From positions 13,945-77,944 of the forward strand of contig CAZHIA010000002.1 in NCBI GenBank assembly GCA_964532425.1: 64,000 nucleotides of DNA, in the 5' to 3' direction. A model generated the notes under the pieces. It did not search any database. It was not told the origin of the DNA and saw only the letters and a program-made list of their open reading frames with translations. Numbering within the stretch: position 1 is the stretch's first letter; the number at the start of each line of letters is the position of its first letter. The position numbers and the translations under genes were made by a program. Below are positions 9,894 to 29,580 of this stretch, one piece after another. Source of the DNA: an uncultured Candidatus Saccharibacteria bacterium. Its GTDB lineage: Bacteria > Patescibacteriota > Doudnabacteria > UBA920.

Positions 9894-9896
9894 ACG

Positions 9897-11840: not shown

Positions 11841-11896
11841 GTTTTACATATAATATCAAGCCCGAAGATATTTCACCAGAAATGGTGCAGGGCGGG

Positions 11897-11934
11897 CCTG
11901 TGACCTCCTCGGTGTAAACGAGGCGCTCTAACCA
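11897..11934 (-). pseudogene. 38-nt tRNA-Val fragment (duplicate of T-stem/anticodon-arm/D-loop segment)
   Basis: Identical to 11787-11824; flanks do not form acceptor or T arms. Confidence 0.6.
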
Positions 11935-12105
11935 TCCGCCTCCGCCAACAGGCGGATGGCGGATAACCGCCCAGGAGTCACAAAGGTTAGCTCAAGTACT
12001 ATAACAAAAACTGCCTTTCCTTGCAAGAGCCTATCCAGCCAAAATATGGCAAAAAAACCGCAATTGCGCTACACTAAGCGTAAGGTAAATCTTAATTGAA
12101 ACCAA

Positions 12106-12972
12106 ATGATCACCCAAGAGATGCTCAGCTATATCCGGGAGCAGCGCGCTGCCGGCCATAGCGATGAAGAAATCAGACAGCAACTTATAGCCTCCGGCTG
12201 GCAGCAGGCTGACATTGAGGAGGGTTTAAAAGCCCCGACAGGATCTACCGCCAGTTTCTCCGGTTCTGCCTCAGGTCCACTGCCTGGACTAGGAGCCTTG
12301 TTTTCTGAAGCCTGGCGCCTTTATAACCAAAGGTTTTGGCCTTTGATCGGCACCTACCTGGCTCCCATGCTGGTATTCTTTGGGGTCGGACTCCTCGCTG
12401 GCGCAGGTTTTGTCCTCAATAAAGCCACTGGAAATGTAATCAGCGGACCTATCGCGATCGTAATATTACTCATTGCCGTTGTTGCTGCCATTTATATCGG
12501 AGTCTGGGGGCAGGCCGCCATGCTTATAGCCATCCGGGACAGCAGCGAAAATATCCCAGTCAAGGAAGCATACAAGCGAGCACGTCCATTCATTGGCGCA
12601 TATTTTTCCACCTCGCTTCTGGCTGGACTGGCAGTCCTCGGAGGCTTTATCCTCTTCATTATCCCAGGCATCATTTTTGCCTTGTGGTTCTGCTTCGCCA
12701 CCTATGCCGTGGTCACCGATAACGTCTCCAATACTGCAGCATTAAAGTTCAGCAAATCCATAGTTAAAGGGCAGATGGGAGCGATCTTCTGGAGATTCCT
12801 GTTCATTGGCGTTCTCACTATCATTTTCAGCTGGCTCGTTACCGCCGCAGGCACTTCCATTCACAACGAACAGGTCGGGAGTCTACTCAATTCGATTTTC
12901 TCACTGTTCTGGTCTCCGTTGGCTGCGGTCTATGGCTTCCTTCTGTTCCAGCACGCGAAGAGCAGAAAATAA
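12106..12972 (+). CDS. hypothetical polytopic membrane protein
   Basis: 288 aa, multiple hydrophobic segments; ends at terminator. Confidence 0.5.
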   Translation: MITQEMLSYIREQRAAGHSDEEIRQQLIASGWQQADIEEGLKAPTGSTASFSGSASGPLPGLGALFSEAWRLYNQRFWPLIGTYLAPMLVFFGVGLLAGAGFVLNKATGNVISGPIAIVILLIAVVAAIYIGVWGQAAMLIAIRDSSENIPVKEAYKRARPFIGAYFSTSLLAGLAVLGGFILFIIPGIIFALWFCFATYAVVTDNVSNTAALKFSKSIVKGQMGAIFWRFLFIGVLTIIFSWLVTAAGTSIHNEQVGSLLNSIFSLFWSPLAAVYGFLLFQHAKSRK

Positions 12973-12985
12973 CTCGCTCATTAAC

Positions 12986-13016
12986 AGCCTGGGAAGAAAT
13001 TTCCAGGCTGTTTTTA
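12986..13016 (+). terminator. intrinsic terminator
   Basis: cagcctgg gaagaaattt ccaggctg + ttttt. Confidence 0.6.
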
Positions 13017-13093
13017 AATGGCTTAAATAAGCCATTTGTAAGCCAAAAGAAATTTTTTTTCTTTTATATAAGCAATATTTTGGTAAAACTGTC

Positions 13094-13122
13094 TTGAAAA
13101 AGAATCCAAAAAGAGGTATAAT
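13094..13122 (+). promoter_or_regulatory. consensus-like promoter TTGAAA-17-TATAAT
   Basis: -35 13094-13099, -10 13117-13122; followed at 13133-13155 by hairpin+T6 (agtgc tatttg gcact cttttttc). Confidence 0.4.
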
Positions 13123-13317
13123 TAATACAGAAAGTGCTATTTGGCACTCTTTTTTCATGAGAGGCTCGTAGCAACTTTCTGGTCTGTTAAATAGTATCCT
13201 TGCGTTCCTTAAAAACGAGGATAAAAACTAGCTTTCCTTAAGGTTTTGGCGTCTTCCGCGAAAGCGGGGGGCATAAAACCAGGGGAAGCCAGGGGAGAAA
13301 GGAGTTTTGATTAAATA

Positions 13318-14043
13318 ATGAAAGCTCTTTCACTCCTTCGGTCTGCCATCGATCACGGCACCATTGCTTCTGCAATAGCCTTGGTCTCGCTGGTTTCCGT
13401 GATTTATCCGGAAATCGGTTTAGCTTCTAGCTTACAGACCGGAGAGGAAAATGCTCTAGTTGTTGAAATCAAAGATCCCGCGTCCGTTCTCACACCAAAA
13501 CCTCAAGAAAAACTGGCGGAAATAACCGCCACCACTTCTGATACCAGTCTTACCTACGACCAGGTCATTAATAATGACCCGTTGGTAAACAACCTCCGCG
13601 AATACCTGAATTCCTACGGCTCGCCATTGGCTGTCTATGCCGACCAAATCGTGCAGCAGCCCAATTGGCAGAAAGCCTTGGCCATCAGTTTCGTGGAGAG
13701 CAATATGGGCAAATACTGCGCTGATAATAACTGCAGCGGCATCGGTGTCGCCCCGGGACATCCGTCCTGGCGCAAGTATGACACCAAGCTCGATTGGTTC
13801 AAGGACCTCTGCCAACTGCTCGATAAGCCCATCTACCAAAAGTACAACACTTTTGAAAAGATGAAAGGAGTTTATGTGCAGCCGGGAAGTGCTCAATGGG
13901 TTAATGGCGCAAAGAAAATTTACGCCGAACTCATGACGGTAGAGGAGCAATCCAACCAACAGCGCGTTGCCATGCAGCAACCGCACACGGTCACAATCGC
14001 AGCCGTAGAACAAGAAGCCCAACTTGCGGTTTTGAAGAAATAA
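13318..14043 (+). CDS. hypothetical secreted/membrane-anchored protein
   Basis: AAAGGAG SD; N-terminal hydrophobic signal-like segment; 241 aa. Confidence 0.5.
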   Translation: MKALSLLRSAIDHGTIASAIALVSLVSVIYPEIGLASSLQTGEENALVVEIKDPASVLTPKPQEKLAEITATTSDTSLTYDQVINNDPLVNNLREYLNSYGSPLAVYADQIVQQPNWQKALAISFVESNMGKYCADNNCSGIGVAPGHPSWRKYDTKLDWFKDLCQLLDKPIYQKYNTFEKMKGVYVQPGSAQWVNGAKKIYAELMTVEEQSNQQRVAMQQPHTVTIAAVEQEAQLAVLKK

Positions 14044-14049
14044 AAAAAA

Positions 14050-14082
14050 TCCCTCCGGTAACCCCGGAGGGATTTTTGTTTT
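14050..14082 (+). terminator. intrinsic terminator
   Basis: tccctccgg taacc ccggaggga + tttttgtttt. Confidence 0.65.
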
Positions 14083-14170
14083 ACTAACCTTTGAATTAAC
14101 CTCTGGCTAATCTATCCACGAGAATACAAAATTAAAAATCCCTCTCAATAAGGGATGTGTGTCGAATAAT

Positions 14171-14258
14171 TGGTGCCCAGGGAGGGAATCGAACCCTCAA
14201 TCCCTTGCGGGCGACAGATTTTAAGTCTGTAGCGTATACCAGTTCCGCCACCTGGGCA
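14171..14258 (-). tRNA. tRNA-Leu (anticodon TAA), CCA encoded
   Basis: revcomp GCCCAGGTGGCGGAACTGGTATACGCTACAGACTTAAAATCTGT...long variable arm...GGGTTCGATTCCCTCCCTGGGCACCA. Confidence 0.85.
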
Positions 14259-14324
14259 ATAGAAATCCATCCAGACTTCGCAAAACCTTAGTTGGTGTTA
14301 GCCAGAAGAAGCCTTAGCGAAGCC

Positions 14325-14400
14325 TGGAGGTGCGGGCGGGATTTGCACCCGCGAATGGCGGTTTTGCAGACCGCAGTGTTAGCTACTTCACCACCGCACC
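14325..14400 (-). tRNA. tRNA-Cys (anticodon GCA), CCA encoded
   Basis: revcomp GGTGCGGTGGTGAAGTAGC...CGGTCTGCAAAACCG...GCGGGTGCAAATCCCGCCCGCACCTCCA. Confidence 0.8.
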
Positions 14401-14630
14401 ATAGACAAAAGGTTAGCTTTTATATTTTACTCGGTATCTGCAATTCTGACAACCCCAACCATTATTCACAGCTTCAATGTTTTCTGATTGACAGAACAAG
14501 AACAATCCCTCATACTTACCCCATGAACCAAAAGATCCAATCCAACATTTCCTATTTCTGGCACTACAAGCTTTCTCCGGGAAAGTTGGTTTTGGAAATG
14601 TCCGCATAGTACTCCACTCACATTTCAAAA

Positions 14631-14662
14631 CAGCTTTCTCGGGTCCGAGAAAGCTGTTTTTT
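14631..14662 (+). terminator. intrinsic terminator (plus strand) with no upstream ORF
   Basis: cagctttctcgggtccgagaaagctg + tttttt. Confidence 0.5.
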
Positions 14663-14678
14663 ATTTATATACCATCAC

Positions 14679-14716
14679 CCCTCCATGGTCCCCATCGGGA
14701 TGGGGACCATGGAGGG
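14679..14716. repeat. 38-bp perfect palindrome P1 (CCCTCCATGGTCCCCATC-GG-GATGGGGACCATGGAGGG)
   Basis: Inverted copy at 15695-15732 (centre CC); degenerate copy at 47554-47577. Confidence 0.8.
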
Positions 14717-14845
14717 AACCATATATTATAGATAAACATTAACCATCCGATCATGTCATTCTCCACCCTGCAAAGCCTAAAGTTTTGGTACCGCTCCTCC
14801 TCAGGCACCTGAAGGCTGTTTTCCATTGTTTGTTGGAAATCATAA

Positions 14846-14883
14846 AACGCCCTCCAGGTTCGCCTGGAGGGCGTTTTTGTTTC
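14846..14883 (+). terminator. hairpin + T-run in leader 25 nt upstream of gene 14906 (attenuator-like)
   Basis: aacgccctccaggttcgcctggagggcgtt + tttttgtttcc. Confidence 0.5.
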
Positions 14884-14905
14884 CATCAATTTCAAAGGGG
14901 GAATT

Positions 14906-15685
14906 ATGAATCACGCTCAATACTACGTTCCGCTTCAAAAGAGTCGGGACCTGCTCGCATCACGAAGCGGCCTGCGCCAACAAGTGGAGGACTTCTGGTT
15001 GTCGCGCGGCTGGGGCTTGCCGCCCCAGCAGATCAGTAGGGGACGCAACATTTCCGTGCTTGCCCGACAGCTGGTCACCTTTCGCATGGAGGAAGCTTTG
15101 TTTGTGACAATGAGCAAACAGGCCGGACTCGAACCGGTGCTGGCCGGCTATTCGGCAGACAAGCATAGTTCACAGTCACGACTCAAACAGAGCTACCTGA
15201 GTCCGAAATTCATCGAGGGTCGCAATAAGAACAACGAACTCATTATCCGTCGGGACAAATTAACTGCCAAGAGCTGGCACGGTACTCCGCTCCATTGCAT
15301 CACACTCGACAAGAAAGGCGGTACCAGCCTGGTCGACTACCACCAAAGCATTCTCGACCGGGCCAGTCCGGGAACACTCCGCTGCGATGTCAGCGAATGG
15401 TATACCAATATCCCATGGAACGATCGGTACATAGCCCTCATGTCCTGGTTTATTGCCCACGCCGTGCTTTTCGAGGACTATCACGGAGGGGAATCGGGGC
15501 CCGGACTTTCGGCGCTAACCCGGCAGCGGTTTGAACCGGCCTTTCACCAAGCAACCCGGATGTTCGGTGTTAGCCCAATCATAACCCCGCTTCCATGGTG
15601 GAATGAGTTGTCCTACTACCCCCAAGATGCGGACTGGCAACGCCTTGGTATTATTCCGCAGGAGCTACTGCAAGCGGTCGCGTAG
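14906..15685 (+). CDS. hypothetical protein (no recognised family), bracketed by P1/P2 palindromes
   Basis: AAAGGGGG SD 5 nt before ATG; 259 aa; GC-richer than neighbours. Confidence 0.55.
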   Translation: MNHAQYYVPLQKSRDLLASRSGLRQQVEDFWLSRGWGLPPQQISRGRNISVLARQLVTFRMEEALFVTMSKQAGLEPVLAGYSADKHSSQSRLKQSYLSPKFIEGRNKNNELIIRRDKLTAKSWHGTPLHCITLDKKGGTSLVDYHQSILDRASPGTLRCDVSEWYTNIPWNDRYIALMSWFIAHAVLFEDYHGGESGPGLSALTRQRFEPAFHQATRMFGVSPIITPLPWWNELSYYPQDADWQRLGIIPQELLQAVA

Positions 15686-15694
15686 TAAGTCAAT

Positions 15695-15732
15695 CCCTCC
15701 ATGGTCCCCATCCCGATGGGGACCATGGAGGG
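15695..15732. repeat. 38-bp palindrome P2 (reverse-complement orientation of P1)
   Basis: CCCTCCATGGTCCCCATC-CC-GATGGGGACCATGGAGGG; 10 nt after stop of 14906 gene. Confidence 0.8.
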
Positions 15733-15759
15733 ACACCATTATAAATAATATATCCTCAT

Positions 15760-16719
15760 ATGTTTACAATAGCATCATTCATCAACCAATTGTGCGCCTT
15801 AGGCAGCCGCCAAGGAAAAACAGAAACTTTGGCAAAGAAGCACATCATCAACATTCTCCAAAAAAACTCTGTGCCATTCTTGCTGCAGGAATTTACCACC
15901 CTGATCCCCGACTACAAACATTCACGACTGACAGCAGACAGGAAAACCATTCTGGCAGAACCCTGTTGCTTTACGAGCGGTACCATTACCAACAAAAGCA
16001 ATATAATCAGCTCCCTTATTAGTTCGCAAAAAAATCTTATTGATCCAAATATCAACTTCAATCCAAAATGTGACCTTATATCACGCAGCAATCACTACTT
16101 TGCGCCGGCTTTTGCCATAGCGAGAAGAGATTTGAAAGATATCCTAAATGCAAAACAAGTTACCGGGGTCGTGCGCGTCAAGAAACTCCACCATCGTTCC
16201 GCCAACATCCTTATCGGCAACATCCATAACCCGCGCTCGATTGTTTTTACCCACTATGATTCCCTTGGTCCCGGCGCCTGTGACAATGCTTCGGGGGTGG
16301 CGGCAGTCATAACTGCTATTACGAACCAGCCTCAGCTGCTCGTCACCTCCCTGTTTGTTATTGCAGGAAATGAAGAGATTTCCTTTGATTTCCCAGTCTA
16401 TTGGGGCCATGGTTACCGAATTTTCGAGCAAAAATACAATAACCTGCTTAAGAAAACCAAAAAAATCATTGTCATCGACTCGGTTGGAATAGGGAAAACA
16501 GTCAGAGTGAAGGGAAAAAAGCTGCTTTCATTGGGCTTTCCTCTGGTAGCGATCAAACAATTAGCCCAGAAAACCTCAATGATTACAGGAGATTTTGGTA
16601 AATTAATGGCAGTTTACCACTCGGAAGGCGATATTCCTGAGGTTTTAGACATGAATGAGGTAGATAATGCAGCACAATTCATTATAAAATCCTTGAAATA
16701 CTCAATATCTAAAGGTTAA
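15760..16719 (+). CDS. M28-family zinc peptidase (aminopeptidase-like)
   Basis: Metal-ligand pattern THYDSLGPGACDNASG ... IAGNEEIS ... VIDSVG ... VYHSEGD. Confidence 0.6.
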   Translation: MFTIASFINQLCALGSRQGKTETLAKKHIINILQKNSVPFLLQEFTTLIPDYKHSRLTADRKTILAEPCCFTSGTITNKSNIISSLISSQKNLIDPNINFNPKCDLISRSNHYFAPAFAIARRDLKDILNAKQVTGVVRVKKLHHRSANILIGNIHNPRSIVFTHYDSLGPGACDNASGVAAVITAITNQPQLLVTSLFVIAGNEEISFDFPVYWGHGYRIFEQKYNNLLKKTKKIIVIDSVGIGKTVRVKGKKLLSLGFPLVAIKQLAQKTSMITGDFGKLMAVYHSEGDIPEVLDMNEVDNAAQFIIKSLKYSISKG

Positions 16720-16741
16720 AATGAAAAATCCCTCATAATTC

Positions 16742-16770
16742 TTTACAAATTAATAAAAATATGCTAAAAT
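16742..16770 (+). promoter_or_regulatory. promoter TTTACA-17-TAAAAT for HTH/giant-fibre operon
   Basis: -35 16742-16747, -10 16765-16770; 5'UTR hairpin gaaatcc...ggatttc at 16808-16831 containing TATAGGAT. Confidence 0.45.
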
Positions 16771-16871
16771 ATAAGTATAAAAGTATCGGATAGCCAAAAA
16801 GTATTCGGAAATCCCAAAAATATAGGATTTCTGGCTAATTCGAAACAAAAATCAAAATAAAAATTACATAC

Positions 16872-17123
16872 ATGTCCGAGCAGGAACGGCTGACGTTCCT
16901 GGCTTCTAAAGACCTGCTTTCCATTAGTGAAGCAGCCAAGTTGACCCCGTATTCAGGGGAATATTTAAGTCTTTTAGCCAGAAATGGACGATTGCCGGCC
17001 ATTAAGATCGCAAGAAATTGGCTTACTACGCGTAAGGCCGTTTTGTCGTACCTGCAGGAACAACAACAAAAGCACCAGAATATTGTCGAACAACTCAGAC
17101 AGCTGCAGGAGGAGGTTATATGA
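16872..17123 (+). CDS. excisionase-family helix-turn-helix DNA-binding protein
   Basis: [47 protein letters not shown] resembles HTH_17/excisionase-type DNA-binding domain; stop overlaps next start (ATGA). Confidence 0.55.
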
Positions 17124-20100
17124 AGACCAAATTCCTGTTTGCTTGGATGTGCGGCACGCTGGTTCTCGCCGAACTCTTAGTGTCTTTCAGGGCCGCTCAA
17201 GATCAGCTCGTTACGTTTATTCCCCATGCGGTACACCGGGCGGTGCCGACCATTTTCCAAGATGCATCAAACTTTGTCTCCTTTTCCGAACGGATGGCTG
17301 GAGAAAAAAACCGGTTGTTGGTACAATTAGGATTTACGATTGAAAATGATCTGCAACATACCGGCCTCATAGCCAAATCTTTCCGTAACGATTCGGTTGA
17401 ACCATACCGCGCCATGGCAAATGCCATTCAAACCGGAATTCGGAAGCAAGCAAAAGACATAGAGTATGCTACCAGGTATGGCACGATTACCCTTAAAATG
17501 TGGAAGAGCTTCTTAGCCTGGGAAAACCAAGCAGTGGTAACTGCGGGCAACTGGGCATCATCAGATCTTAGGACTGACATTACGGCGCCATATCAAACCG
17601 GAGCTGTAGCAATCAGGCAAGGGTTATACGAACAGTCCCGGCAGGTTGGTAGGTTCTGGCAGGGAATAGTAGAAAACGCCGGTTCAATCGACATTGCAGT
17701 CAATGGCTTAGGGGAGCAACCGAATTTACCGCAACGGCTTGTTGCTACTAACGTTTTTCATCTCAAAAAACAAACTGAGGCCACAAATTCAACCCCTCAA
17801 CTTTCCCTTAACGCTCAAAACGGAAAAGTCCTTGCAGCCAAAACTTCGACAAACACGAATACTGGCAAACCAGTAGCACAACCTACATACCAGCCGGGCG
17901 ATACCATGGCTATGGTCAACCAGCGATTGGATGAATACACCCAATTCTTAGCTAGCTTTGGGTATGGGGTGAATGGGAATAATGGGTCGAATGGGGTGAA
18001 TACGACCAATCAGGCATCGGGAAATCAAACCACGGTCATCAACAATGTTCCGCTCGTTACCTATGTCCCGTCCAACCAATCGCAGAACTTCTCTGGTGGC
18101 TCCCTGGCCGGCTTTACCCAGCTTGGGGCAGACGGGTTGACCGTTTCCACCGCCAGAATCAACTCCAGTTTAAATCTTTCAGGCCCGGCCACACTCTCAT
18201 CACTGACGGTGAGTGGTTTGTCCTCTCTTGCTACAACTACGGTCACCGGCACCCTGACTGCAGAACATTTTGTCGGCGACGGAAGCGGCCTAACCGGCTT
18301 ACCCAGTGGTTCGCAATGGACCACCAGCGGAAGCGATATTTATTACAACAGCGGGAATGTCAGTATCGGAACAACTACACCGACTGCAAAATTCCAGGTT
18401 GATGGGACCTCTTATCTTGGATCTAATGCATCACAAGTTGCTAGTTATTTATCCGGTTGGGCCACAGCTGAAGCGTTCGTATACGGTCACACTAGCGGTA
18501 CCGATACCAGCTGGTACGAACGAAACGGTTTATATGTAGTAGAAGAAGATCATTCAGTGGATTCAAACACCCCTTATGTATATGGGGCCACCATTCAAGG
18601 AAACGGATATGGAACCGGTGATTATTCGGAAATTGCAGGTTTAAAAGTGTGGGGAACCGTAAACAACTCCACGACAATGTCCAATCAATATAGCAGTTTA
18701 TACGGGATTCAGACTTTTGGTGGAGCATATGACGATTCATCGGTTCAAAACGCTTATGGAGTTTGGTCAACCGGCGTCTACAACGGCAATTCAAATGTGA
18801 ATAACTTGTACGCCATATATTCCAGAAGGGCCGGCTATAGTCCCGGAGGCAAAGTAAATAACAGTTACGGAGTTTATATACAAAATCCAGTAGGGGGTGC
18901 TACTGGTAATAATTATGGATTGTTTTTGGATAACATGTCGGCCGGCACATCGACAAATTTTTCTATATATTCCGCTGGAGGTACCAGTTATTTTGCCGGC
19001 AGCATAGGAGTCGGCACAACTTCTCCTGTCGCGAGTTTGACAATAAAAGGAAGTGGTGGAACAAATCCGTTTGTGATTGCGTCATCGGCCGGGTCGACTT
19101 TATTAGCAGTTACACAGTCCGGCAACGTTGGTATAAACACTTCAACCCCGGCTTTCAAATTGGATGTTAATGGCATAATAAATGCTACTGCCCTGTACGT
19201 GAATGGCTCGCCTTACATTGGCAGCCAGTGGGCCACGAACGGATCGAGTGTCTACTACAATGGCGGCAATGTTGGCATTGGGACGACAACGCCGCAAGCC
19301 AAGCTCGAAGTTGACGCTACCGTAACCCCGACAGGAAGCGAGCTGGTGAGTAACGGTTCGTTCACCGGTGGAACTGCAGGGTGGACGCTTGGGTCCAATG
19401 TCAGTTATGGCACGAATAATGTCGTGAGCACCTACGCTGGCGGTGACCCATCGTTAAGTACGAATTTTAATACGGAAGCTGGTAAAACTTATTTGCTTAC
19501 CTTTACTGTTTCCAATGCCAACGCGAATTCATATTTGTATTTCTACTTGGACAACAACCGGCTTTCTTATAATTCGGGCCAAGTCTCGAATCAGACGTAT
19601 AGCGTGGCTTTTAAAACCGACTTTACCGGAACCGAAACAATACATTTTGACCAATGGAATTACACGAATGGGGAGACGTGGACTTTAGATAATGTATCCA
19701 TTAAGGAAATAAATCCCACAAAACCCTCTCTGCTCGTTAAAAATTATAATGGTGAGACGGTTCTTTCCGCTGGCGGGGATTTATATGGGAATACCGTATT
19801 CGGATCAGCTGCACTGAGCTCAAACACCACCGGTGGTAATAATCTCGCCTTAGGCAATAGAGCATTATTGTCCAATACGTCCGGCTGGGAAAATATAGCG
19901 TTAGGTGCGAATGCTTTATTCGCAAATACAACAGGAACGCATAACATTGCTGTTGGTCCGGCGCTGGCTAGCAACACGACAGGTGATGACAATTATGCGT
20001 TTGGAATCGGTTCCATGGCTAATAACACGAGCGGCAGCGCTAATATTGCCTTGGGACACATGACGCTTAACAGCAATCAAACAGGAAGTTTTAACATAGC

Positions 20101-23100
20101 TGTCGGAGCGGGTTCTTTATGGGATATGACTGGTGGTACCAATGTAACAGGGATTATAACCGGAACCGCGTGGGGACGGTCAGCTTATCCTTTTCCGTCA
20201 ATTTTCCGCGGAACACAAAAACAACTTGACAGTTCAGTACTTATTGGGCCACGAGCAACAACCGGTGTCAACAGCGATTCCGCATCTATGCTTACAAATG
20301 TTGTGGCGATAAACGGTATGGCCACACAGAGCAACCAGGTCGTCATCGGCAATAGCGCTACTCAGCAAATGATATTGTATGGCAATGTCGGGATTGGGAC
20401 CACTACCCCTTCCGCGACTTTGCATATAGAGGGAGCTCAGCCGCAGATTTTATCCAAAGCCACGGACCCGGCACAATCAGCTTCCTGGTCCCTGACAACT
20501 CCCGGCAACAACGTCTCATTCACGGCATACCAATATGGCAGCAGTTATGTCGGTACGTATTTGGGATTGAACGCTACCGGAGTTTCGGTACTTCGCGCCG
20601 CAGGCGGATCGGCAGGCATGGTCATCAACGAAGAATCCAACGCACCTATTTTGTTCGGCACCAGCAACCACGAACAAATGCGCATCGAGGGCGGCGGCAA
20701 TGTAGGCATTGGTATTACCGTACCCCAGGCCAAACTGCATGTATCCGGAGGCAATGTCCTGTTTGAAACCGGTAATGTCAGCATTGGCACCACCACAACA
20801 CCCAGCAAATTATTAGTCCAAGGAGCAACCGTTGACCCCACCGCTCCAGTCTTGAGCGTACTGAACCATTCAGCTGCAAATGTATTGACTGTGCTCGATA
20901 GTGGTAATATCGGTATTGGCACCACCACTCCTTCCCAGCTTTTGACGGTAGGCAATAATAACCAATTTACTGTGAGTACCACTGGTGCTGTAACCGGGCT
21001 TAGCTTTACGGATGTAAATGGTTCGCAAATGGGCGGCGGTGTATTAAATGTAGCCGGAGGAGGCAACGCGACTTATATTAATTCTTCCGGCATCAGTTTG
21101 CAGACCGGCAGCAGTATGAGGATTTTATGGAACGGCCAAAGCGTGGGATTGTCGAGCGGCGCGTCAGGAAAGCTTTATGTTGGTAACGGGACTATTGGTG
21201 ATTATTCGGGAACTTTAATCGCCGGCAACGTCGGCATCGGGACGACATCACCATCACAATTACTTGCGGTGGGAAATAATAATCAGGTCACGGTAGATTC
21301 GAATGGCTTGATTACAATGACAAAACCGAGCAGCGCTTTACCCGCAACGTATTTATATTTTAAAGTGCCAGGTTCCGCGGATTGGGGCGTATCGTTGGGC
21401 GCTGAAACTATTCCGAATTGGTATTTTGGTAGAGCGTCTACCCGCCAGACATCGGACTATTTTTGGAGAGCTAACTGGAATACCGCAGGCGTTGCGGTGA
21501 ACACATTCCAGAATGCGGATTCGGGTAACGGCTACGGTGGGGCTGCACTGACTACTATGAATATTCAAGGCATAACAAATCAGACGGGGGATTTGTTTGC
21601 AATTAGCACTTCCAGCTCGAGCCCAATGGGTAATTTGTTTAAGGTCCAGCAAAACGGGAATGTCGGGATTGGGACGACGAGTCCTATTGTAAAATTAGAT
21701 GTCTGGGGAAATTTGAATGTTGCAACGTCTTCCACATCGACTTTGTATGTAGATGCGGGCACAGGCAGGGTGGGGATTGGGAAGAATAATCCGAGCTATG
21801 CACTGGATGTAACGGGTCCAATACGTTCGACCAGTAATATTTACGGCGGCTGGGCAATGCTCCAACGCTTAGTCGATTCTGACAATAATTCTTATTACGT
21901 TAACCCCGACGCCAACGGCAGTGGATTTTCCGCAGTTTTAGCCGGCAACGTCGGCATTGGCACCACCACACCTAACCAAACTTTGGAAGTTGTTGGTAGT
22001 TTCGGGATTAGCAATGGGAGTAACAATACCAGGGTTGTCATGACTCCGGTATTCGCCAACACGTTGCAATTCAGTTATGGCGGTACGGGGGCTAACATTG
22101 GCAGCCTTACCAATGGTTCCTACTTATTGTTAGGTCCATCGGGCAGCACTACCACTCCGGTATACGCCTTTACCAATGACGCCAATACCGGCATTGGCAC
22201 TGCAGGGAACAGCAGTGACACCATCAGTTTAATTACCGCTGGCTCCAGCAGGGTATTTATTGATGCTCTTGGGAATGTCGGCATCGGGACGACGACACCA
22301 AAGGCAACACTGCATGTGGAGGGATCGCTAAATATAAACAACGGATCAATTACGCACACGACAAGCACCAATTTGACCACTATTGATTATTTACAGGTCG
22401 GGGCGAGCGGGTTTGAGACAGACGCCGGCATGGTGACATGGACAGATATGCCGGTGACGGCAAGCTCTGCCACTACCACGATTTTAAGCTACACCGCTTC
22501 TATGAACGGCGCGCCAGTGTTAACGGTGTATGCCAACGGCGACGGTGCGGGCGGCATCCAGAATGCGGCGGTCGGCATCGGCACCACTACGCCAACCTTA
22601 GGACCCTTAACGGTCAGTAACGGCGCTTATGTTACTGCCGGCGGAACCTGGACCAACTCTTCTGATAGGAATAAGAAAGAGAACTTTACCGATGTAGACC
22701 CGTTCGAGGTCCTGCAAAAAATCAACTTGCTTAGCATTCAACAGTGGAACTACAAGAACGAAACCGCTTCCACTACGCACATCGGCCCGGTCGCACAGGA
22801 CTTTTACGATAAGTTCCACCTGGGCGGCAGCGACCTTTCGATTTCCACTATCGACCCTGCCGGTGTGGCACTCTTAGGCATGCAGGGCTTTAGCAAAATT
22901 TTTGGATTGCAAGGCAACTTAAACGGCAGTTTATCATCCACCACCCCCATAACTATCACCCGCCAAGTTAACTTTGCTGGCGACACCGTGGGTGAGGCTA
23001 AAATTTTAGCCGGCGCAACCTCAGTCAGAGTGAATTTTGACCAGCCGTACGAGTATCAGCCAATTGTTACCCTAACACCTTTGGACTTCGTTGACGGCGC

Positions 23101-23536
23101 ATACCGCGTGACCGCAGCAGATGCCAGTGGCTTTACCATTGAGCTGCAGAAAATCCAAAGCATAGATGCCTCATTTAACTGGCATGCATTCGGCGGCAAA
23201 GGTACGCAGCTAACCGTATCCAACGGCAGCAAATCGAAAATAATTTTGGTGCCTGCAGGCAAAGGCCAAGTCGGCCAAACCAATCCCGCACTTACTGTAA
23301 CAACCGGAAACGGTTCCCCGCAGCCGACTACTACCACAACCGAAAACGAGAATAAAGGCACGGTAGCCGGCGCAAACACCGGAACTGAAGAACAACCGGC
23401 AACCGGAATTACGGAACCTGCAGCGAAGACTGATGGCACCATCACGACTCCGGAGCCGGCAGGAACCTCAACTCCTGACACCGGCACACAGGAAACTGCC
23501 AGCCCGGAAACCCCGACTGGGACGGCGGGGGAATAG
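17120..23536 (+). CDS. giant membrane-anchored fibre protein: tail-fibre-like G-I-G-T-T-T-P repeats, CBM-like module, Hep_Hag-like repeats, C-terminal Peptidase_S74-like intramolecular chaperone domain, Thr/Pro/Glu-rich tail
   Basis: GGAGGAGG SD; N-terminal TM helix; about 14 copies of GNVGIGTT(T/S)PxAKLxV; [12 protein letters not shown] module; SDRNKKENF...[10 protein letters not shown] near C-terminus. Confidence 0.85.
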
Positions 23537-23593
23537 GACTGGTAGGATGAATGGGTGAGATGAGTCCAATAGGGTAGATAAGAATAATAAGAT

Positions 23594-23670
23594 CTATAGG
23601 ATTGATAATTAATATAGGATGAATAGGAAGTATAGGATGTATAGGTCCTATCAAACCTATTTATCTTATA
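23594..23670. repeat. TAGGAT-word repeat tract (7-8-bp periodic)
   Basis: tataggattgataattaatataggatgaataggaagtataggatgtataggtcctat; 14-mer ATAGGATGAATAGG repeated at 24315-24328. Confidence 0.6.
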
Positions 23671-23676
23671 AAGCCT

Positions 23677-24309
23677 ATGGGTGGTTATAGGGATTTAAAA
23701 TCTTTCCAAGGAACGGAGATTATTTTTGATTTGACTGTGGAATTTTTATCCCGCTATATAAAAAATAACCGCAAGCTTTGGGAACAGATGGAAGGAGCCG
23801 CACGGAGCGGCAAGCAAAATTTAGCTGAAGGTTCAAAATACATGAACACTTCCCGCGCCTCTGAAATCAGGTTGATTGAGGTTAACCGTGGCAGCTTGGA
23901 AGAACTCTTGCTTGACTACGAAGATTGTCTGCGCAAGAATCATTTACCCATTTGGAGCATGCAGGACCACCGCGTGACCAAAATCAGGAAACTAGCTTAT
24001 GCTCCCAATAAGTCCTATAAAACCTATTTATCCTATTTGGAAAATCTAGAAACAGCTGCCAATTGTTTAATTACCATCATCAATCAAACTAACTATCTCT
24101 TAGACCGGCAAATGAGAAGCCTGAAAACCGATGTAATTGAAAAGGGCGACATGAGGGAAAGACTGTCACAAGAACGCAATGCATTTAAGAAAACTCAACT
24201 AGCCAACCCCGGACCATCGCTCGACGAATTTCTAAAAGGGTTCGGAATGAAACGTTTAGAAAACGGCCAAGTGATAAAAATTGAGGAATATGATTCAAAG
24301 AAACAATAA
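23677..24309 (+). CDS. four-helix-bundle protein (23S rRNA intervening-sequence protein family), extended C-terminus
   Basis: YRDLKSFQ...QNLAEGSKY...RLIEVNRGSLEEL pattern; paralog at 39760. Confidence 0.5.
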   Translation: MGGYRDLKSFQGTEIIFDLTVEFLSRYIKNNRKLWEQMEGAARSGKQNLAEGSKYMNTSRASEIRLIEVNRGSLEELLLDYEDCLRKNHLPIWSMQDHRVTKIRKLAYAPNKSYKTYLSYLENLETAANCLITIINQTNYLLDRQMRSLKTDVIEKGDMRERLSQERNAFKKTQLANPGPSLDEFLKGFGMKRLENGQVIKIEEYDSKKQ

Positions 24310-24319
24310 GACAAATAGG

Positions 24320-26452
24320 ATGAATAGGTCAGATATGACCAATAAGACCTATAGGACGTATAAGACCTTTATTGCTGCAATGATTGCGGCTGTTTTTCTG
24401 CTGCCCGGTTTTTCTGCCCAGGCTGCAATGATAAAAAAACAGCCGAATAATTTGGGACTGAAAGCTTATTGGAATTTTGACGAAGGCAAGGGGATAAAGG
24501 CTGGGGATTTTAGCGGGAATGGCAACAAAGGAACCCTATCCAACACCACCTGGACTAATGGCAAGCACGGCAAGGCTTTAAATTTTAACGGCAGCAACAG
24601 CGCCATGTCAGTTGCCAGCTACACTAACATGAGCCCAGGCGCCAACAACTTTTCTATAGCTTTTTGGATCAAAACTTCGGGCTATGGCGATTTAATTATA
24701 GGTGCGGACGGCAATGCGGGCACCACGCTGCAAGGCTACGGCCTGGCTATTCCTTTCGGCTGGGGCTGTGCCACACCCGGCCAGCTGTATTTTAATTTTT
24801 CTAATGGCGCTGCACGCGAAGTAGGTTTTTGTTCCAGCAGTATCATTAACGATGGTGGCTGGCATCATGTTTCTATAACTGTCACCCGCGGCGATAAAGT
24901 AAAATTTTACATAGACGGCAACTTGGACAACTCCTTAAACACTACCTTAAACGGTTCCGTACTCCTCCACCATTTCAGCATAGGACAAATTGCCTGGCAA
25001 GGCTGGCTGAACGGATTAATGGATGATATCCGCCTTTATAACCGCGCGTTGTCCGCAAGCGAGGCACTCACCTTATATCAAAGCGGCCAGGAAACCATAG
25101 GTGGCAACCAGGCTGGCCGCGGGACAGACGGTTTAGTAGGGTATTGGTCATTGAATGCCAGTGATGTTTCAGGATCGTCAGCAACCGATGCCAGCGGCAA
25201 AGGCAGAACCTTAACACTATTTAACGGTCCTGCAGCAGCCACTGGACGGTTTGGGCAGGCTTTGTCTTTTAACGGCAGTACGCAGTACGCCAGCACGAGC
25301 AATGCTTTTTCCGAAATCGGCGTGAGCAACCAGGCTTACACGGTTTCAGCCTGGGTCAAAATAGCGCAGGGCAAAACCCAGGGCGATATAATTCATACTT
25401 CCAGTTTGTCAAACGGTTCAGGCTGGTGTTTGGCGCCGCTTAAAATCAACGGCTCAAAAATTGAAACCACCAGCTGGAGTTCCGGTGATGTTACAATTTC
25501 CGGTAATACCACTTTAAAAGCCGATGCTTGGTATTTTTTGGCCGCCACCTGGTCTGCTTCCGGCGGACTACGCGCCTATGTTAATGGAAATTTAGATGCC
25601 TCGACAACTCAGAACACTTATACCGCCAGCGGAGTATCTAATTATATATTTTTGGGCGGGCACGGCGGAGGCTGCGCTTCTGACCGCGGCTATTTTACCG
25701 GAACTATAGATGAACCGCGGGTTTATAGTCGCGCTTTATCACAAACCGAATTAACCGCGCTTTATAATCTTGGCAAAAAAACCGAGAACACCTCACCAAC
25801 ATCGCGCTTAAATGACGGACTCATTGGCTACTGGAACTTTAACGGCGCGAATATGACGGACACACTTGCTTTAGACTCATCCGGTAACGGTTATACCGCC
25901 ACTCTTGCCGGTAACACCGCCAAAGCCATCGGCAAAATAGGGCAAGGGTTATATTTTGACGGCAGCGGCGATTACGTGGCAGTACCTTATACGGCGGCTT
26001 TGGCGCCTGCAAGCGCCATCAGTTATGGCGCTTGGTTTAAATCCTCCGATGTTTCCGCCAATACGCGCATTATTTCCAAAACCGAATTTGGCGGGTTTAA
26101 CCTAGGGCTCAACGACACGGTTTCCGGCATATCCGCCACCGTCAATACAACAAACGGGGGTTATCATTATGTAAATTACCCATCGCCGCAAAACAATCGC
26201 TGGTACCACGCGTTTGTCACCTATGACGGCAGCAATGTGAGTCTGTATGTGGATGGGCAGCTAGCCAGCAGCACGCCAGCTACCGGATTAGCCAACTTCA
26301 CCCGCACCAACCCTTTATGCATCGGGTCAGAACCCAATTCAACAGCGTGCACGTACGGCAACTATTTGACGGGCTTAATTGATGAAGTGCGCATTTATAA
26401 CCGCGCTCTGGCACCGGCTGAGGTTAAACAATTATACATAATGGGAAAATAG
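24320..26452 (+). CDS. secreted protein with three tandem LamG-like (concanavalin A-like lectin) domains
   Basis: Signal peptide ...AAVFLLPGFSAQA; three repeats each ending D(D/E)(I/V/P)R(L/I/V)YNRAL(S/A)..E(L/V)..LY; start ambiguous (24290/24320/24335). Confidence 0.7.
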   Translation: MNRSDMTNKTYRTYKTFIAAMIAAVFLLPGFSAQAAMIKKQPNNLGLKAYWNFDEGKGIKAGDFSGNGNKGTLSNTTWTNGKHGKALNFNGSNSAMSVASYTNMSPGANNFSIAFWIKTSGYGDLIIGADGNAGTTLQGYGLAIPFGWGCATPGQLYFNFSNGAAREVGFCSSSIINDGGWHHVSITVTRGDKVKFYIDGNLDNSLNTTLNGSVLLHHFSIGQIAWQGWLNGLMDDIRLYNRALSASEALTLYQSGQETIGGNQAGRGTDGLVGYWSLNASDVSGSSATDASGKGRTLTLFNGPAAATGRFGQALSFNGSTQYASTSNAFSEIGVSNQAYTVSAWVKIAQGKTQGDIIHTSSLSNGSGWCLAPLKINGSKIETTSWSSGDVTISGNTTLKADAWYFLAATWSASGGLRAYVNGNLDASTTQNTYTASGVSNYIFLGGHGGGCASDRGYFTGTIDEPRVYSRALSQTELTALYNLGKKTENTSPTSRLNDGLIGYWNFNGANMTDTLALDSSGNGYTATLAGNTAKAIGKIGQGLYFDGSGDYVAVPYTAALAPASAISYGAWFKSSDVSANTRIISKTEFGGFNLGLNDTVSGISATVNTTNGGYHYVNYPSPQNNRWYHAFVTYDGSNVSLYVDGQLASSTPATGLANFTRTNPLCIGSEPNSTACTYGNYLTGLIDEVRIYNRALAPAEVKQLYIMGK

Positions 26453-26509
26453 AACTACGAAGCTACAAATAGGGGACACTACAAAAAACTACGAAATCCC
26501 AAACAACGA

Positions 26510-26543
26510 AAACACCCCGACAAAAAGTCGGGGTGTTTTTCTT
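26510..26543. terminator. bidirectional intrinsic terminator (LamG operon / rpsA)
   Basis: acaccccgac aaaaa gtcggggtgt + ttttctt. Confidence 0.65.
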
Positions 26544-26547: not shown

Positions 26548-27774
26548 TTACGCTGCCGCTTCTTCCGTTTTTTCCTCTACAGCCTTTTCTTCCTTCTCAG
26601 CTTTCTTCGGCGGCTCCTGCAAAGCTTTCAAAGACAGCCCTAAGCGGTGTTCAGCCGGCTCGATGGAGATAACCTTGAAATCGCATTCCTGGCCGGGCTT
26701 TAAGACCTCTTCAGGATTCTTAATAGCCTGGTGGGACAGTTCCATAATGTGGGCAAGGCCCTGAATGTCCTTGTCGAGTTCAACGAAGACTCCGAACGGC
26801 ATGATCTTGGTGACTTTACCATTCACCACCTGGCCGATCTGGTACTTCTTCACGGCTTCCAACCAGGGATCCTGCTGCAATTGCTTGATAGACAGGGAAA
26901 CACGGCCCTTGTCGATGGAAATAATCTTAGCTTGCACTTTCTGGCCGACTTTGACGATATCCTTGGGATTCTCGATGCGCTGCCAGGCCAGTTCACTGAT
27001 GTGGACCAAGCCTTCCAAGTCGCCGAATTTGACGAAAGCACCGAAATCAACCACGCCGGTCACCATACCATCAACCACGTCGCCGATCTTGAGCTTGGAG
27101 AGGCGTTCTTCCACTTCCTTCTCGAAGACAGCCTTTTCGGAAACAATCAGTTTTTCTTCAGTAGAATCAGCGGTGATAATCTGGACATCAAACGGCTGGC
27201 CGACATAGCTCTGCAAGACAGAGAGAATCTTGTTCTTGTCGCCATCTTCCACGCGGGGATAGTGCTCGAGGCTCAACTGGGACACGGGCAAGAAACCCAT
27301 GACATTGTTGATCTCGACCATGAGACCGCCTTTGTTGGCTTCCAAAATCTTGGTGCGGACAACTTCCTTGCTGTCCATCTTGGCCTTGAGGGTCTGCCAG
27401 ACGCGTTCCTGGCCAGCTTGGCGCAGGGACAGTTCGACAATACCTTCCTTGTTCTCGGGCTCAACCACAGAAACAAAGATTTGGTCACCGGGCTTGAGGC
27501 TGGCCAGAGTCGCTTCGTCATCATACAGCTCGCGGCCGCGGACCACGCCGACACCGTAGCCTTCCAGGTCAACATAGACCTCGTTCTTGCCCACGGAAAT
27601 GAGCGTTCCCTCGACCATGTCGCCGGGCTTTAAAACCTTGATCTCAACGCCGGATGACAGTAAATCCTGCATGGTTTCGGCTTTGGCCGCTTCTGCCGGG
27701 ATATTCTGCTGGAGCAGTTGGGTAGGGGTTTGGGGGGTAGTTAATTCTTCCATTGAAATTCCTTTACTAACCAT
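26548..27774 (-). CDS. rpsA: 30S ribosomal protein S1
   Basis: Multiple S1 RNA-binding repeats (GxxVxGxVxxI..fGaFV). Confidence 0.9.
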   Translation of the reverse strand: MVSKGISMEELTTPQTPTQLLQQNIPAEAAKAETMQDLLSSGVEIKVLKPGDMVEGTLISVGKNEVYVDLEGYGVGVVRGRELYDDEATLASLKPGDQIFVSVVEPENKEGIVELSLRQAGQERVWQTLKAKMDSKEVVRTKILEANKGGLMVEINNVMGFLPVSQLSLEHYPRVEDGDKNKILSVLQSYVGQPFDVQIITADSTEEKLIVSEKAVFEKEVEERLSKLKIGDVVDGMVTGVVDFGAFVKFGDLEGLVHISELAWQRIENPKDIVKVGQKVQAKIISIDKGRVSLSIKQLQQDPWLEAVKKYQIGQVVNGKVTKIMPFGVFVELDKDIQGLAHIMELSHQAIKNPEEVLKPGQECDFKVISIEPAEHRLGLSLKALQEPPKKAEKEEKAVEEKTEEAAA

Positions 27775-28564: not shown

Positions 28565-29191
28565 ATGCAAATACAATATTTCGGCCTGTCTAGTTTCAAA
28601 ATCACAACCAAGGAAGCGGTAGTTGCCACTGACCCGTTCCATAAGGATTCCGGCCTGGTACCGCCCCGGGGAGCTGCTGATATTATCATCCTGTCTCAAA
28701 AGGAAAAGAACCTTTATTCTGCCGTTTCTGGGTTTTCCGGTGACCCATTTATGATGGATACGCCGGGGGAATACGATGTTAAAGGTGTAACCGTCACCGG
28801 AATTCCGCTTAAGCAAGAGGATAAATATGTCACGGTCGAACTTATCGAAAGCGAGGATATCAGGATCCTGAACCTTTCCCATATCAAGGAATGGAACATG
28901 AAGGAAGACGAAGTGGAAGAATTGGGGGAGATAGACATTCTCATCCTGCCGGTCGGTGGCAACACTGTCCTCTCCGCCGCTGCCGCAGCCAAAGTGGTCA
29001 ACGAAATCGAACCGAAAGTTGTCATTCCCTCGCACTACAAAATGAAAGAATTAATTCTGGACCTCGATCCGCTCGAGAAATTCATCAAGGAAATGGGCGG
29101 TAAGAACGAATCCATGGACAAGCTGACCCTCAAGAAGAAAGACCTGGCCGAAGAGGGGACGAAGGTTGTGGTGTTGGAACCGTTAAGATAG
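28565..29191 (+). CDS. MBL-fold metallo-hydrolase-like protein
   Basis: 208 aa; ...ILILPVGGN...VVIPSHY pattern of metal-dependent hydrolases (beta-lactamase fold). Confidence 0.5.
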   Translation: MQIQYFGLSSFKITTKEAVVATDPFHKDSGLVPPRGAADIIILSQKEKNLYSAVSGFSGDPFMMDTPGEYDVKGVTVTGIPLKQEDKYVTVELIESEDIRILNLSHIKEWNMKEDEVEELGEIDILILPVGGNTVLSAAAAAKVVNEIEPKVVIPSHYKMKELILDLDPLEKFIKEMGGKNESMDKLTLKKKDLAEEGTKVVVLEPLR

Positions 29192-29272
29192 TTAAAAGTT
29201 CAAAGTGAAAAGTTCAAAGTTACTTACAAACCAAGCAATTTTTAATTTTGAATTTTAAATTTTGAATTTACC
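29192..29272. repeat. word-built AT-rich palindromic spacer (TTCAAA words)
   Basis: aagttcaaagtgaaaagttcaaagtt ... aattttgaattttaaattttgaattt. Confidence 0.5.
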
Positions 29273-29482
29273 ATGTCTTGGCTTGAGCGCATTCGGAAAA
29301 AATCACACGATGAAAAAGTTAAACTGATCTGGATCATTTGCGGTTGGACCGCTGCCGTGCTGGTCATTGTCTGGATCGTCTCGGCACATTATGCCAAAAG
29401 ACTCCCGACCGACCCATCCCTGTTTACCACCCTTGGACAAAGTTTCCATGATTTAAAGCAAAACTTTAACAATAACCATTGA
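29273..29482 (+). CDS. small membrane protein
   Basis: 69 aa, one TM helix; flanked by word-palindromes. Confidence 0.35.
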   Translation: MSWLERIRKKSHDEKVKLIWIICGWTAAVLVIVWIVSAHYAKRLPTDPSLFTTLGQSFHDLKQNFNNNH

Positions 29483-29580
29483 CCTTTAACATTTGACATT
29501 TGACAGGGCAGGCCACTGCTTGCTTCGCTGAAGCGAGCCTACACTACGGTCAAAGGTCAAATGTCACATGTTAAATGTAA
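29477..29580. repeat. word-built palindromic spacer (TGACATTT/TTAACA words) upstream of gyrA, contains GGCAGGCCAC motif
   Basis: ccattgacctttaacatttgacatttgaca ... ggtcaaaggtcaaatgtcacatgttaaatgt. Confidence 0.5.

Follow-up and report, generated by a model that had tools for sequence, protein, structure and literature searches.

Which genes of a four-gene block in a small bacterial genome belong together, and what sets their expression? We address this question for a block in a 64,000-nucleotide (nt) stretch of DNA (the window) from an organism that, as an earlier note made from the sequence had expected, is a small-genome member of the Patescibacteria. The block encodes, in order, an 83-amino-acid (aa) helix-turn-helix (HTH) protein, a 2138-aa fibre-like protein (the giant), a four-helix-bundle (4HB) suffix protein and a protein with three LamG stretches. 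The earlier note had proposed that these genes form one attachment system, domesticated from a phage receptor-binding module and headed by an excisionase-type DNA binder. Our analysis instead favours, with moderate confidence, a model in which the core is a two-gene, probably self-regulated HTH-giant surface-fibre module and in which the 4HB and LamG genes are looser passengers.

The HTH gene (16872-17123), the giant gene (17120-23536), the 4HB-suffix gene (23677-24309; 210 aa) and the LamG gene (24320-26452) all lie on the plus strand, in the order described before. The stop codon of the HTH gene overlaps the start codon of the giant gene in an ATGA at 17120-17123, and a Shine-Dalgarno (SD) sequence, GGAGGAGG, is embedded in the last HTH codons at 17108-17115, about 1 base from the position that the earlier note implied. 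Together, the SD and the overlap make up a coupling signal on the plus strand (17108-17123), through which the output of the regulator would track fibre synthesis.

This arrangement recurs. Searching with the HTH protein gave 486 genomic matches in species-representative genomes, from which the best 79 loci were kept; its nearest relatives come from metagenome-assembled genomes of Patescibacteria, several of them labelled Doudnabacteria. A standalone HTH gene (HTH of ~80-136 aa) occurs at 34 distinct places. At 29 of these, the next open reading frame (ORF) is at least 500 aa long or is cut by the contig end, and one locus beyond these 29 (L008) resembles a frameshifted giant. The complete giants that follow a standalone HTH range from 903 to 2894 aa, and over all 29 places the second gene encodes a TM or secreted protein of 900 to more than 3300 aa. 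The two genes overlap by 4 nt in 20 places and by 1 nt in 5, and a GGAG-type SD lies within the last HTH codons in 23 of 28 related loci. The giants themselves vary, some having the repeats, the S74 module and the C-terminal domain of the window protein and others having no similarity detectable by phmmer, and their flanking and downstream genes differ between loci. Because only the HTH gene and the giant gene recur across loci, the conserved unit consists of two genes and not of four. We also considered, and rejected, a frameshift fusion of the HTH protein and the fibre, since the overlaps are -4, -1 or -8 depending on the locus and have no common frame offset. In some genomes (L021, 18938-20225; L029, 16627-17031), a second leader and HTH unit directly follows the first giant gene; in L021, a fragment of a GxxExxY-type (PD-(D/E)XK) gene lies between this second HTH unit and the next gene for a transmembrane (TM) protein, and in L029 the second HTH is an orphan with several copies of TATCGGTTA before it.

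The HTH protein matches Pfam HTH_17 (PF12728) above the gathering threshold (28.2 bits vs a cut-off of 27, E = 2.4e-6, residues 15-64), which upholds the original family assignment. Its AlphaFold2 (AF2) model has a predicted local distance difference test score (pLDDT) of 93 and comprises a winged HTH with the order H-E-H-H-E-E followed by a long helix (54-82). Foldseek matches the model to TraN, BldC, RacA, RdfS and MerR N-terminal domains at a root-mean-square deviation of ~2 A, with HiNmlR and CarH as other matches of the MerR N-terminal type; a sequence search against solved structures returned only noise. Residues P26, Y27, Y31, L32, S33, R37, K45, R48, W50, T52 and T53 are invariant in the family. 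Judged by the model, the protein shares with MerR-family regulators the winged HTH and a dimerisation-type helix. However, it ends after this helix and has no effector-binding C-terminal domain, and its promoter has a 17-nt spacer with the conserved box located past the -10 element, whereas the classical MerR operator lies within a 19-20-bp spacer. Similarly, BldC, TraN of pIP501, RacA and Xis/RdfS match ~50 residues of its fold at ~2 A and are small with a C-terminal helix, but the sequence similarity is marginal and no integrase, attachment site or conjugation genes lie near the window HTH gene. TraN and BldC bind specific repeats at promoters. The excisionase reading of the earlier note found no support: the excisionase model TIGR01764 scores 23.5 bits, below its cut-off of 28.8, there is no integrase among the ORFs examined, and we found no relatives of the HTH protein in 2.9 million viral contigs.

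What would such a protein bind? A pattern scan located the promoter-like site reported before at 16742-16770 on the plus strand, with a -35 TTTACA (16742-16747), a 17-nt spacer and a TG (16762-16763) upstream of the -10 TAAAAT (16765-16770); a second promoter-like site (10/12) lies at 16693-16722. Because the 22 promoter-like sites in the region are no excess over shuffled sequence (18.4 ± 4.2), the pattern at 16742-16770 proves nothing alone, and its weight comes from the combination of an extended -10, 10-14 nt and a conserved box that recurs in ~30 related loci. In the window, this box A, GTATCGGATAGCC (16783-16795, plus strand), contains the 9-bp near-palindromic core TATCGGATA (16784-16792), which lies 13 nt past the -10 element, has no other exact copy in the window and is a candidate operator of the HTH protein. 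In 1.18 Mb of related loci there are 131 copies of the 9-mer TATCGG[AT]TA, its complement included, and 114 of these fall within -300 to +150 of the start of an ORF with this HTH; the density of 2.8/kb at HTH-gene starts, vs 0.015/kb, amounts to a 189-fold enrichment.

The box is present at 32/38 genes in which HTH and giant are split, at 18/24 genes in which they are fused and at 24/24 genes in which the HTH is joined to a Fic domain, and its arrangement differs among the three. Split genes have a single copy. Fused genes have either a 21-bp palindrome, TATCCGATA-N3-TATCGGATA, or direct repeats, and Fic genes typically have TATCGGATA-N15-TATCCGATA, with single or lone copies on either strand; direct repeats occur in L005, L011, L043 and L046. 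The invariant half-site, its use in palindromic and direct arrangements and the DNA-binding fold of the protein together lead us to read the box as the operator of an autoregulator. We thus infer that the box serves a dedicated autoregulator rather than being the target of an excisionase, with binding of the HTH protein as the prediction, and the regulon appears limited to the HTH protein's own gene.

The box is part of a longer leader. Standalone HTH genes share an upstream layout consisting of an extended -10, 10-14 nt, AAAGTATCGG(A/T)TAGC, a hairpin, GAAACAAAAA(C/T)AAAA at 22-31 nt from the start codon, and the start codon itself. In the window, the hairpin in the 5' untranslated region (5'UTR) spans 16802-16837 on the plus strand, with arms at 16802-16814 and 16825-16837, the loop CAAAAATATA at 16815-16824 and an outer helix in which 16786-16796 pairs with 16831-16843. 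It is followed on the same strand by the A-rich box GAAACAAAAATCAAAA (16842-16857), which precedes the HTH gene; this gene has no GGAGG SD. The hairpin had been described before and is real by its minimum-free-energy fold (z = -3.5). Scored per sequence against shuffles, as MAFFT misaligned the variable stems, 29 leaders have stems of 8.6 bp on average vs 4.3 ± 2.2 in shuffles (per-sequence z mean -3.5), and the hairpin covaries, with at least four pair types at every stem position and a loop that is often CAAAAYNN. No Rfam family matches the leader at the gathering or the E-value threshold. The A-rich motif GAAACAAAAA[CT]AAAA has 18 copies in 1.18 Mb, 17 of which lie 25-31 nt before an HTH start. 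The word TATAGGAT (16821-16828), which the earlier note had singled out in the 5'UTR, falls in the loop and 3' arm of the hairpin; the window has six copies vs 2.4 expected, and the other five belong to the 4HB cassette described below. We rejected the idea that the word connects the 5'UTR with the 4HB arrays, the leader copy being single, the count near chance and the word missing from leaders without a 4HB gene, and we judge the leader copy an incidental part of the leader hairpin that is unrelated to the cassette copies.

The same leader admits a different reading, in which box A, instead of being a DNA operator, belongs with the hairpin and the A-rich tract to a new cis-acting element of the 5'UTR RNA that controls translation or stability and is recognised by ribosomal protein S1, by another factor or by the HTH protein acting as an RNA binder. 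This reading would account for a box that, at split loci, is always on the sense strand, 10-14 nt past the -10 element, with part of it paired in the outer helix, as well as for the covarying hairpin and for an HTH gene without an SD whose start codon follows an invariant A-rich tract at a distance of 25-31 nt; as RNA, inverted box pairs could form hairpins as well. We nonetheless consider it decidedly unlikely. The arms of the box are invariant and lack the covariation expected of an RNA stem, which, together with the direct repeats in the four loci named above, favours recognition of DNA by a protein over an RNA stem. Moreover, the lone boxes at Fic genes occur on either strand, and the HTH has a DNA-binding fold. 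We therefore retain the operator as the preferred reading of the box and note that the hairpin and the A-rich tract may act as RNA elements alongside it, the two readings being compatible.

The fused relatives show how the HTH protein and the giant are related. In 24 further loci, the HTH, a linker of 50-200 aa, a single TM helix and a large ectodomain are fused in one protein; the fused proteins of many Patescibacteria have the HTH in 1-3 copies. An exhaustive HTH profile search gave 3592 clusters at 50% identity, 1195 of them at E <= 1e-10; the best 150 representative clusters include 27 of more than 1000 aa, the longest with 6890 aa, and many with 2-3 HTH stretches. One TM helix is predicted at residue ~90-300 in 24 of the 27 giant clusters, and in all 14 giant clusters in which the HTH motif was found it is N-terminal to this TM position. 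The N-terminal TM and juxtamembrane region of the window fibre can be aligned with what follows the HTH in the fused proteins of L006, L015 and L030; this homology makes the window pair the split form of one protein family. On the basis of these alignments, we take the HTH protein to be the detached cytoplasmic head of an HTH-TM-giant protein family. In a third architecture, the same HTH is located at the C-terminus of ~310-aa Fic proteins (HPFxDGNGR) from Chloroflexi, DPANN archaea and others, 24 loci in all (L035, L037-L039, L041, L044, L045, L049, L051, L057, L058, L060, L061, L063, L066-L069, L073, L074, L076-L078 and L080). Because the box is at the gene start in every one of these, the HTH and the box travel jointly across domains of life.

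By their layout, the fused relatives resemble ToxR, TcpP and CadC, in which a single TM helix likewise joins an N-terminal DNA-binding domain to an extracytoplasmic one; the promoters of the fused relatives carry the predicted binding motif of their own HTH. They differ from these proteins in that the fold of the HTH family is of the MerR/excisionase type and not of the OmpR type, and in having giant fibre ectodomains of 1000-6890 aa rather than small sensor domains; furthermore, the window has two separate, translationally coupled genes whereas at least 24 relatives have a single polypeptide. The membrane-bound architecture also raises the possibility that the HTH is mainly a cytoplasmic tether and less a gene regulator, keeping either the giant gene's promoter DNA or the nucleoid at the membrane and thereby either coupling transcription, translation and Sec export in space or linking the fibre mechanically to the chromosome, with the split form as a relic. 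In agreement with this idea, the fused HTH is covalently bound to the membrane and the box is nevertheless kept at those genes, the recognition surface of the HTH is invariant across phyla, and the best structural matches include RacA, an anchor of the chromosome at the cell pole. Yet the HTH is a free 83-aa protein in the window and is also free in ~30 other loci; the same HTH and box occur at soluble Fic proteins, where autoregulation in the style of toxins fits and tethering hardly does; and a box just past the -10 element is typical of repression. We consider a tether unlikely as the main function of the HTH and prefer autoregulation.

Turning to the fibre, the giant carries a TM or signal segment near its N-terminus (aa ~5-27), followed by a juxtamembrane region without a family match (aa 30-330), a shaft of 11 repeats (aa 412-1718) into which a beta-sandwich resembling a carbohydrate-binding module (CBM) is inserted (aa ~728-868), an S74 intramolecular chaperone (aa 1848-1896, nt 22661-22807) and a conserved C-terminal domain (aa ~1961-2050) followed by a T/P/G-rich tail. 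The S74 assignment of the earlier note stands: the protein matches Pfam Peptidase_S74 above the cut-off (41 bits vs 22, E = 2.4e-10), and the catalytic Ser-x4-Lys dyad, S1848 and K1853, is intact in an SDRNKK motif. With the 11 repeats and a match to the PHROG tail-fibre family phrog_9942 (2e-12), this also bears out the fibre-like character claimed for the protein. The claim of a CBM-like module has weak support. The insert has sub-threshold matches to the galactose-binding-like Mann_GBD_bact (E = 0.0075) and to DUF642 (0.039), and its AF2 model gives a beta-sandwich that Foldseek matches weakly to CBM6, CBM36, CBM4-2 and toxin receptor-binding domains (E ~1e-2); the CBM_4_9 match that had been expected was not seen. 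A homologue search with the segment gave no matches, so a single sequence underlies this model, and its confidence is low (pLDDT 62). The post-S74 domain (22808-23269, aa 1897-2050) is conserved at the C-termini of the giants of L007, L017, L019, L021, L022, L028, L032 and L087; it has a sub-threshold match to the H-type lectin family (H_lectin, E = 0.014) and lies within the fragment that S74 autocleavage would release.

The S74 module with its Ser-x4-Lys dyad, the repeat shaft and the PHROG match liken the giant to phage fibres and tailspikes such as the endosialidase of K1F and the L-shaped fibre of T5. The window gene differs from these in being chromosomal and located among housekeeping genes, and its product differs in having an N-terminal TM or signal segment and not a virion-attachment domain, and in having an extra ~240 aa after S74. 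Only three phage fibres match the window fibre, weakly, at 31-33% identity. With these three matches, the lack of viral relatives of the HTH and housekeeping neighbours ~30 kb from dnaA, the view of the locus as a domesticated phage module is not supported; the fibre looks like a member of a long-resident cellular gene family, and a phage origin is poorly supported.

According to a 2026 preprint on the Pam pilus of the candidate phyla radiation (CPR), a tail fibre-like gene consistently adjoins pam operons (bioRxiv 10.64898/2026.03.03.709456), and a term search of its text found no mention of an HTH, of such a regulator or of transcription. Several HTH-giant loci lie among genes for small secreted proteins; the window has no such neighbours. 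One HTH-giant subfamily (L005, L008-L012, L014 and L024), in which the giants start ...AAFNxxINYQGKLTN..., sits in a conserved cluster of genes for signal-peptide proteins (~6000-20000 in each locus), with proteins of ~331, 267 and 445 aa upstream of the pair and of ~200, 370 and 350 aa downstream of it; this cluster may be a Pam pilus operon.

The third gene of the block is part of a cassette (23532-24371, plus strand) in which degenerate 9-nt arrays of the ATAGGAT/ATAAGAC type (23532-23676 and 24305-24371) flank, and inverted arms (23623-23669 and 24306-24352) bracket, the 4HB ORF; the flank-to-flank RNA duplex has z = -6, and an internal copy of the array word is located at 24005-24039 within the ORF. 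As assigned before, the product is a 4HB protein: it matches the four-helix-bundle suffix domain NCBIfam TIGR04258 above the cut-off (49.4 bits vs 40), with TIGR02436 and PF05635 (23S_rRNA_IVP) sub-threshold, and is 50-60% identical to proteins named 'four helix bundle suffix'. Homologues with 50-60% identity in other lineages have the same word, ATAGGAC/ATAAGAC, or its complement, and the word is 32-fold enriched in the 150-nt flanks of 80 metagenomic 4HB homologues, which were obtained with an alignment as query, a single-protein query giving none. The DNA of the array word also encodes the conserved internal peptide of the family, N(R/K)SYKTY. Expansions occur in some homologues, at the N-terminus, at the C-terminus or internally (NKSYKTY.., NRTDRTDRTN..; compare L021, 18678-18880), and L088 has a perfect (GACTTATAC) x8 array at 6637-6760, so that the word repeat seems to expand inside and outside the ORF.

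The suffix family has at least 3972 members in mixed contexts. One of them, in L092 (3479-9007), lies in a type I restriction-modification operon between hsdR, whose stop it overlaps, and hsdM, a placement that may explain why one source labels such proteins 'restriction system protein'. Like the 4HB proteins of 23S intervening sequences (IVSs; PF05635, TIGR02436, TIGR04258), the window protein matches the suffix hidden Markov model, and its inverted repeats could form a stem as in an rRNA IVS; the cassette differs in lying within a protein-coding operon and not in rRNA, and differs from IVS and Avd proteins in having family-specific ATAGGAC word arrays that also code for N(R/K)SYKTY. We found no description in the literature of 4HB word arrays or of cassette behaviour within operons. 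We regard the 4HB gene as a promiscuous IVS-like cassette, separate from the putative HTH-fibre core. The window has a second 4HB gene (39760-40134, in a region spanning 39707-40177; PF05635, 5.8e-12) between rsmI-like and ruvC-side genes, bracketed by a different 9-nt word, TTTAAATGA upstream and its complement downstream, with arms of 28 nt that are 96% complementary.

One could suppose that the block is a prophage remnant or a remnant of a diversity-generating retroelement (DGR), with the 4HB protein as an Avd-like accessory of a retroelement that mutates the fibre or the LamG protein. PF05635 proteins do resemble the Avd of DGRs (PMC10053308). The S74 and LamG domains match phage protein families. 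The targets of DGRs are usually lectin-like proteins of the surface. We regard this origin as highly improbable, as no reverse transcriptase or integrase is present among the window ORFs scanned or read, no pair resembling a template and a variable repeat is found among the direct repeats of the window, and the neighbours are housekeeping genes with dnaA ~30 kb off.

The last gene encodes the LamG protein, which matches Pfam Laminin_G_3 in three stretches (261 bits, 4e-78), in line with its first assignment, and is not a member of the TafC model NF052521 (104 bits vs a cut-off of 410). Its N-terminus, MNRSDMTNKTYRTYKTFIAAMIAAVFLLPGFSAQA, is signal-peptide-like. The start is probably the ATG at 24320 (710 aa), which an independent gene caller used, and not the TTG at 24281 (723 aa), which would overlap the 4HB stop. 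No LamG homologue is found in any of 81 HTH loci, and a 4HB-suffix gene follows the giant in one of ~12 loci with a visible giant end (L021). With only the HTH-giant pair recurring, these counts speak against the fixed HTH-fibre-4HB-LamG system of the earlier note, and the LamG protein would be a lineage-specific, secreted, lectin-like passenger rather than a fixed partner.

A dedicated attachment system, in which four genes from a phage receptor-binding module act together under the HTH regulator with the 4HB and LamG proteins as obligatory partners, is accordingly very unlikely in our view. Such a system would explain why a block of genes in one orientation, followed by a single strong terminator, contains all four domains, and partial versions of it exist elsewhere: a giant, a 4HB, a LamG x3 and a second 4HB gene in L088/L089, adjacent 4HB and LamG genes in L100, L102 and L113, and a 4HB-suffix gene after the S74 giant in L021 and after a homologous giant in L087. 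It does not explain why the genes after the giant vary by locus, why among the HTH loci LamG homologues are absent and a 4HB-suffix gene is present in one, or why the suffix family is so large and so mixed in its contexts, hsdR-hsdM included; nor do the absence of HTH relatives from viral contigs, the weak phage-fibre similarity and the lack of an integrase in the ORFs examined speak for its proposed source.

The single strong terminator ends the block. A pattern scan placed this bidirectional intrinsic terminator, the sole strong one, at 26508-26540 (26510-26543 in the earlier note); it combines a 14-bp stem, 7 pairs of which are GC, with T-runs on each strand, and is shared with a convergent gene for a ribosomal protein S1 with S1 domains (26548-27774, minus strand). 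The related claim that no terminator interrupts the unit is correct for strong ones, whereas seven weak terminator-like patterns with 5-7-bp stems lie within the unit on the plus strand; such weak patterns occur at chance level (17 found vs 14.2 expected). The layout is compatible with one transcript that ends at 26508-26540, as predicted for co-transcription of the 4HB and LamG genes, and these two genes are probably read through from the HTH promoter as far as this terminator.

In our model of the module, transcription would start near 16777 from a sigma-70-type promoter, and the first transcribed bases would carry the TATCGGATA box, followed by the hairpin and the A-rich, SD-less leader. 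The HTH protein would bind the box just past the -10 element and thereby throttle its own operon or set its level. Ribosomes that finish the HTH gene would reinitiate on the fibre gene by means of the embedded SD. The fibre would then be exported through its N-terminal TM or signal segment, its repeats forming a shaft like that of a tail fibre, and S74 (S1848/K1853) would cleave itself after folding, freeing the last 291 residues. Transcription would run on past the 140-nt array spacer, across the 4HB gene with its bracketing stems and along the LamG x3 gene until it meets the terminator. Attachment at the cell surface is the likely role of the products.

Several observations count against this model or narrow it. 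The related loci were retrieved through the HTH, so the counts cover only giants that have one. The box at split loci is single, always on the plus strand and transcribed, which leaves room for a role at the RNA level. The window fibre keeps only ~4 cytoplasmic residues, so that here the HTH has lost any physical contact with the fibre. Finally, a 4HB-suffix gene lies beside a giant or LamG gene in 8 of the 10 sampled CPR lineages, a count that covers the window and L021; together with the gene order in L088 (giant, 4HB, LamG x3, 4HB), this makes a looser association between the cassette and surface genes real, and calling the cassette a mere passenger may understate the tie.

The block stands on an ordinary small-genome chromosome in a housekeeping context. 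Translations read in the window include IF-2, RbfA, GyrA, RuvC, TyrS, PBP1A and a type IV pilin-like protein; RuvB, seven tRNAs and, also as a neighbour, an M28-like peptidase are present. Genes dnaA-dnaN-recF are located at 52.6-56.6 kb of the window, ~30 kb from the fibre operon. The cumulative GC skew has its minimum at ~52-56 kb, where dnaA, dnaN and the recF-like gene lie (52656-56569), and the window therefore probably spans the replication origin. PADLOC returned nothing significant, and a defence-system reading was dropped.

Other features of the window stand apart from the module. Just upstream of the HTH-fibre block, a 259-aa ORF (14906-15685) without a Pfam match lies between two near-identical, 39-nt, GC-rich perfect palindromes, CCCTCCATGGTCCCCATCGGGATGGGGACCATGGAGGGA (14679-14717 and 15694-15733), and resembles an inserted cassette bounded by hairpins. 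An internal 38 nt of the tRNA-Val gene (11764-11840, minus strand), at 11787-11824, is copied exactly 110 nt away at 11897-11934, a partial duplication of the type that integration events leave. Several intergenic regions have degenerate 7-9-nt units in paired arrays that are inverted relative to each other and enclose no ORF, at 263-369, 29190-29269, 29479-29578, 38947-39049, 46233-46334, 56569-56668 and 60032-60125; in one example, AATTGACAA x4.4 stands opposite TTTTGTCAA x4.2, and many units contain TTGACA. These arrays could be 'empty' counterparts of the arrays that bracket 4HB genes, promoter clusters or bidirectional terminators.

Giant surface proteins are leading candidates for mediating the attachment of episymbiotic Patescibacteria to their hosts, and our literature search found no description of the HTH-giant pairing, of the box, of the leader or of how giant surface proteins of Patescibacteria are controlled. 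More tentatively, and as a proposal that we think may well prove wrong, we speculate that the invariant HTH and its invariant 9-bp operator constitute a portable unit of self-regulation that CPR bacteria, Chloroflexi and DPANN archaea have in common and by which giant adhesins tether their own promoter. If true, a single protein would relay host contact, or the load, cleavage or loss of the fibre, to transcription in organisms in which two-component systems are nearly absent; hundreds of Patescibacteria lineages would wire the unit through one TM helix directly to giant fibres of the surface, and the window would represent its split, translationally coupled version. Independently of this, the recurrence of an 83-aa protein, a 9-bp site and a 95-nt leader before giant-fibre genes across the phylum provides a testable hypothesis at the level of the family, and the box and leader offer a sequence tag for candidate attachment genes in uncultured genomes.

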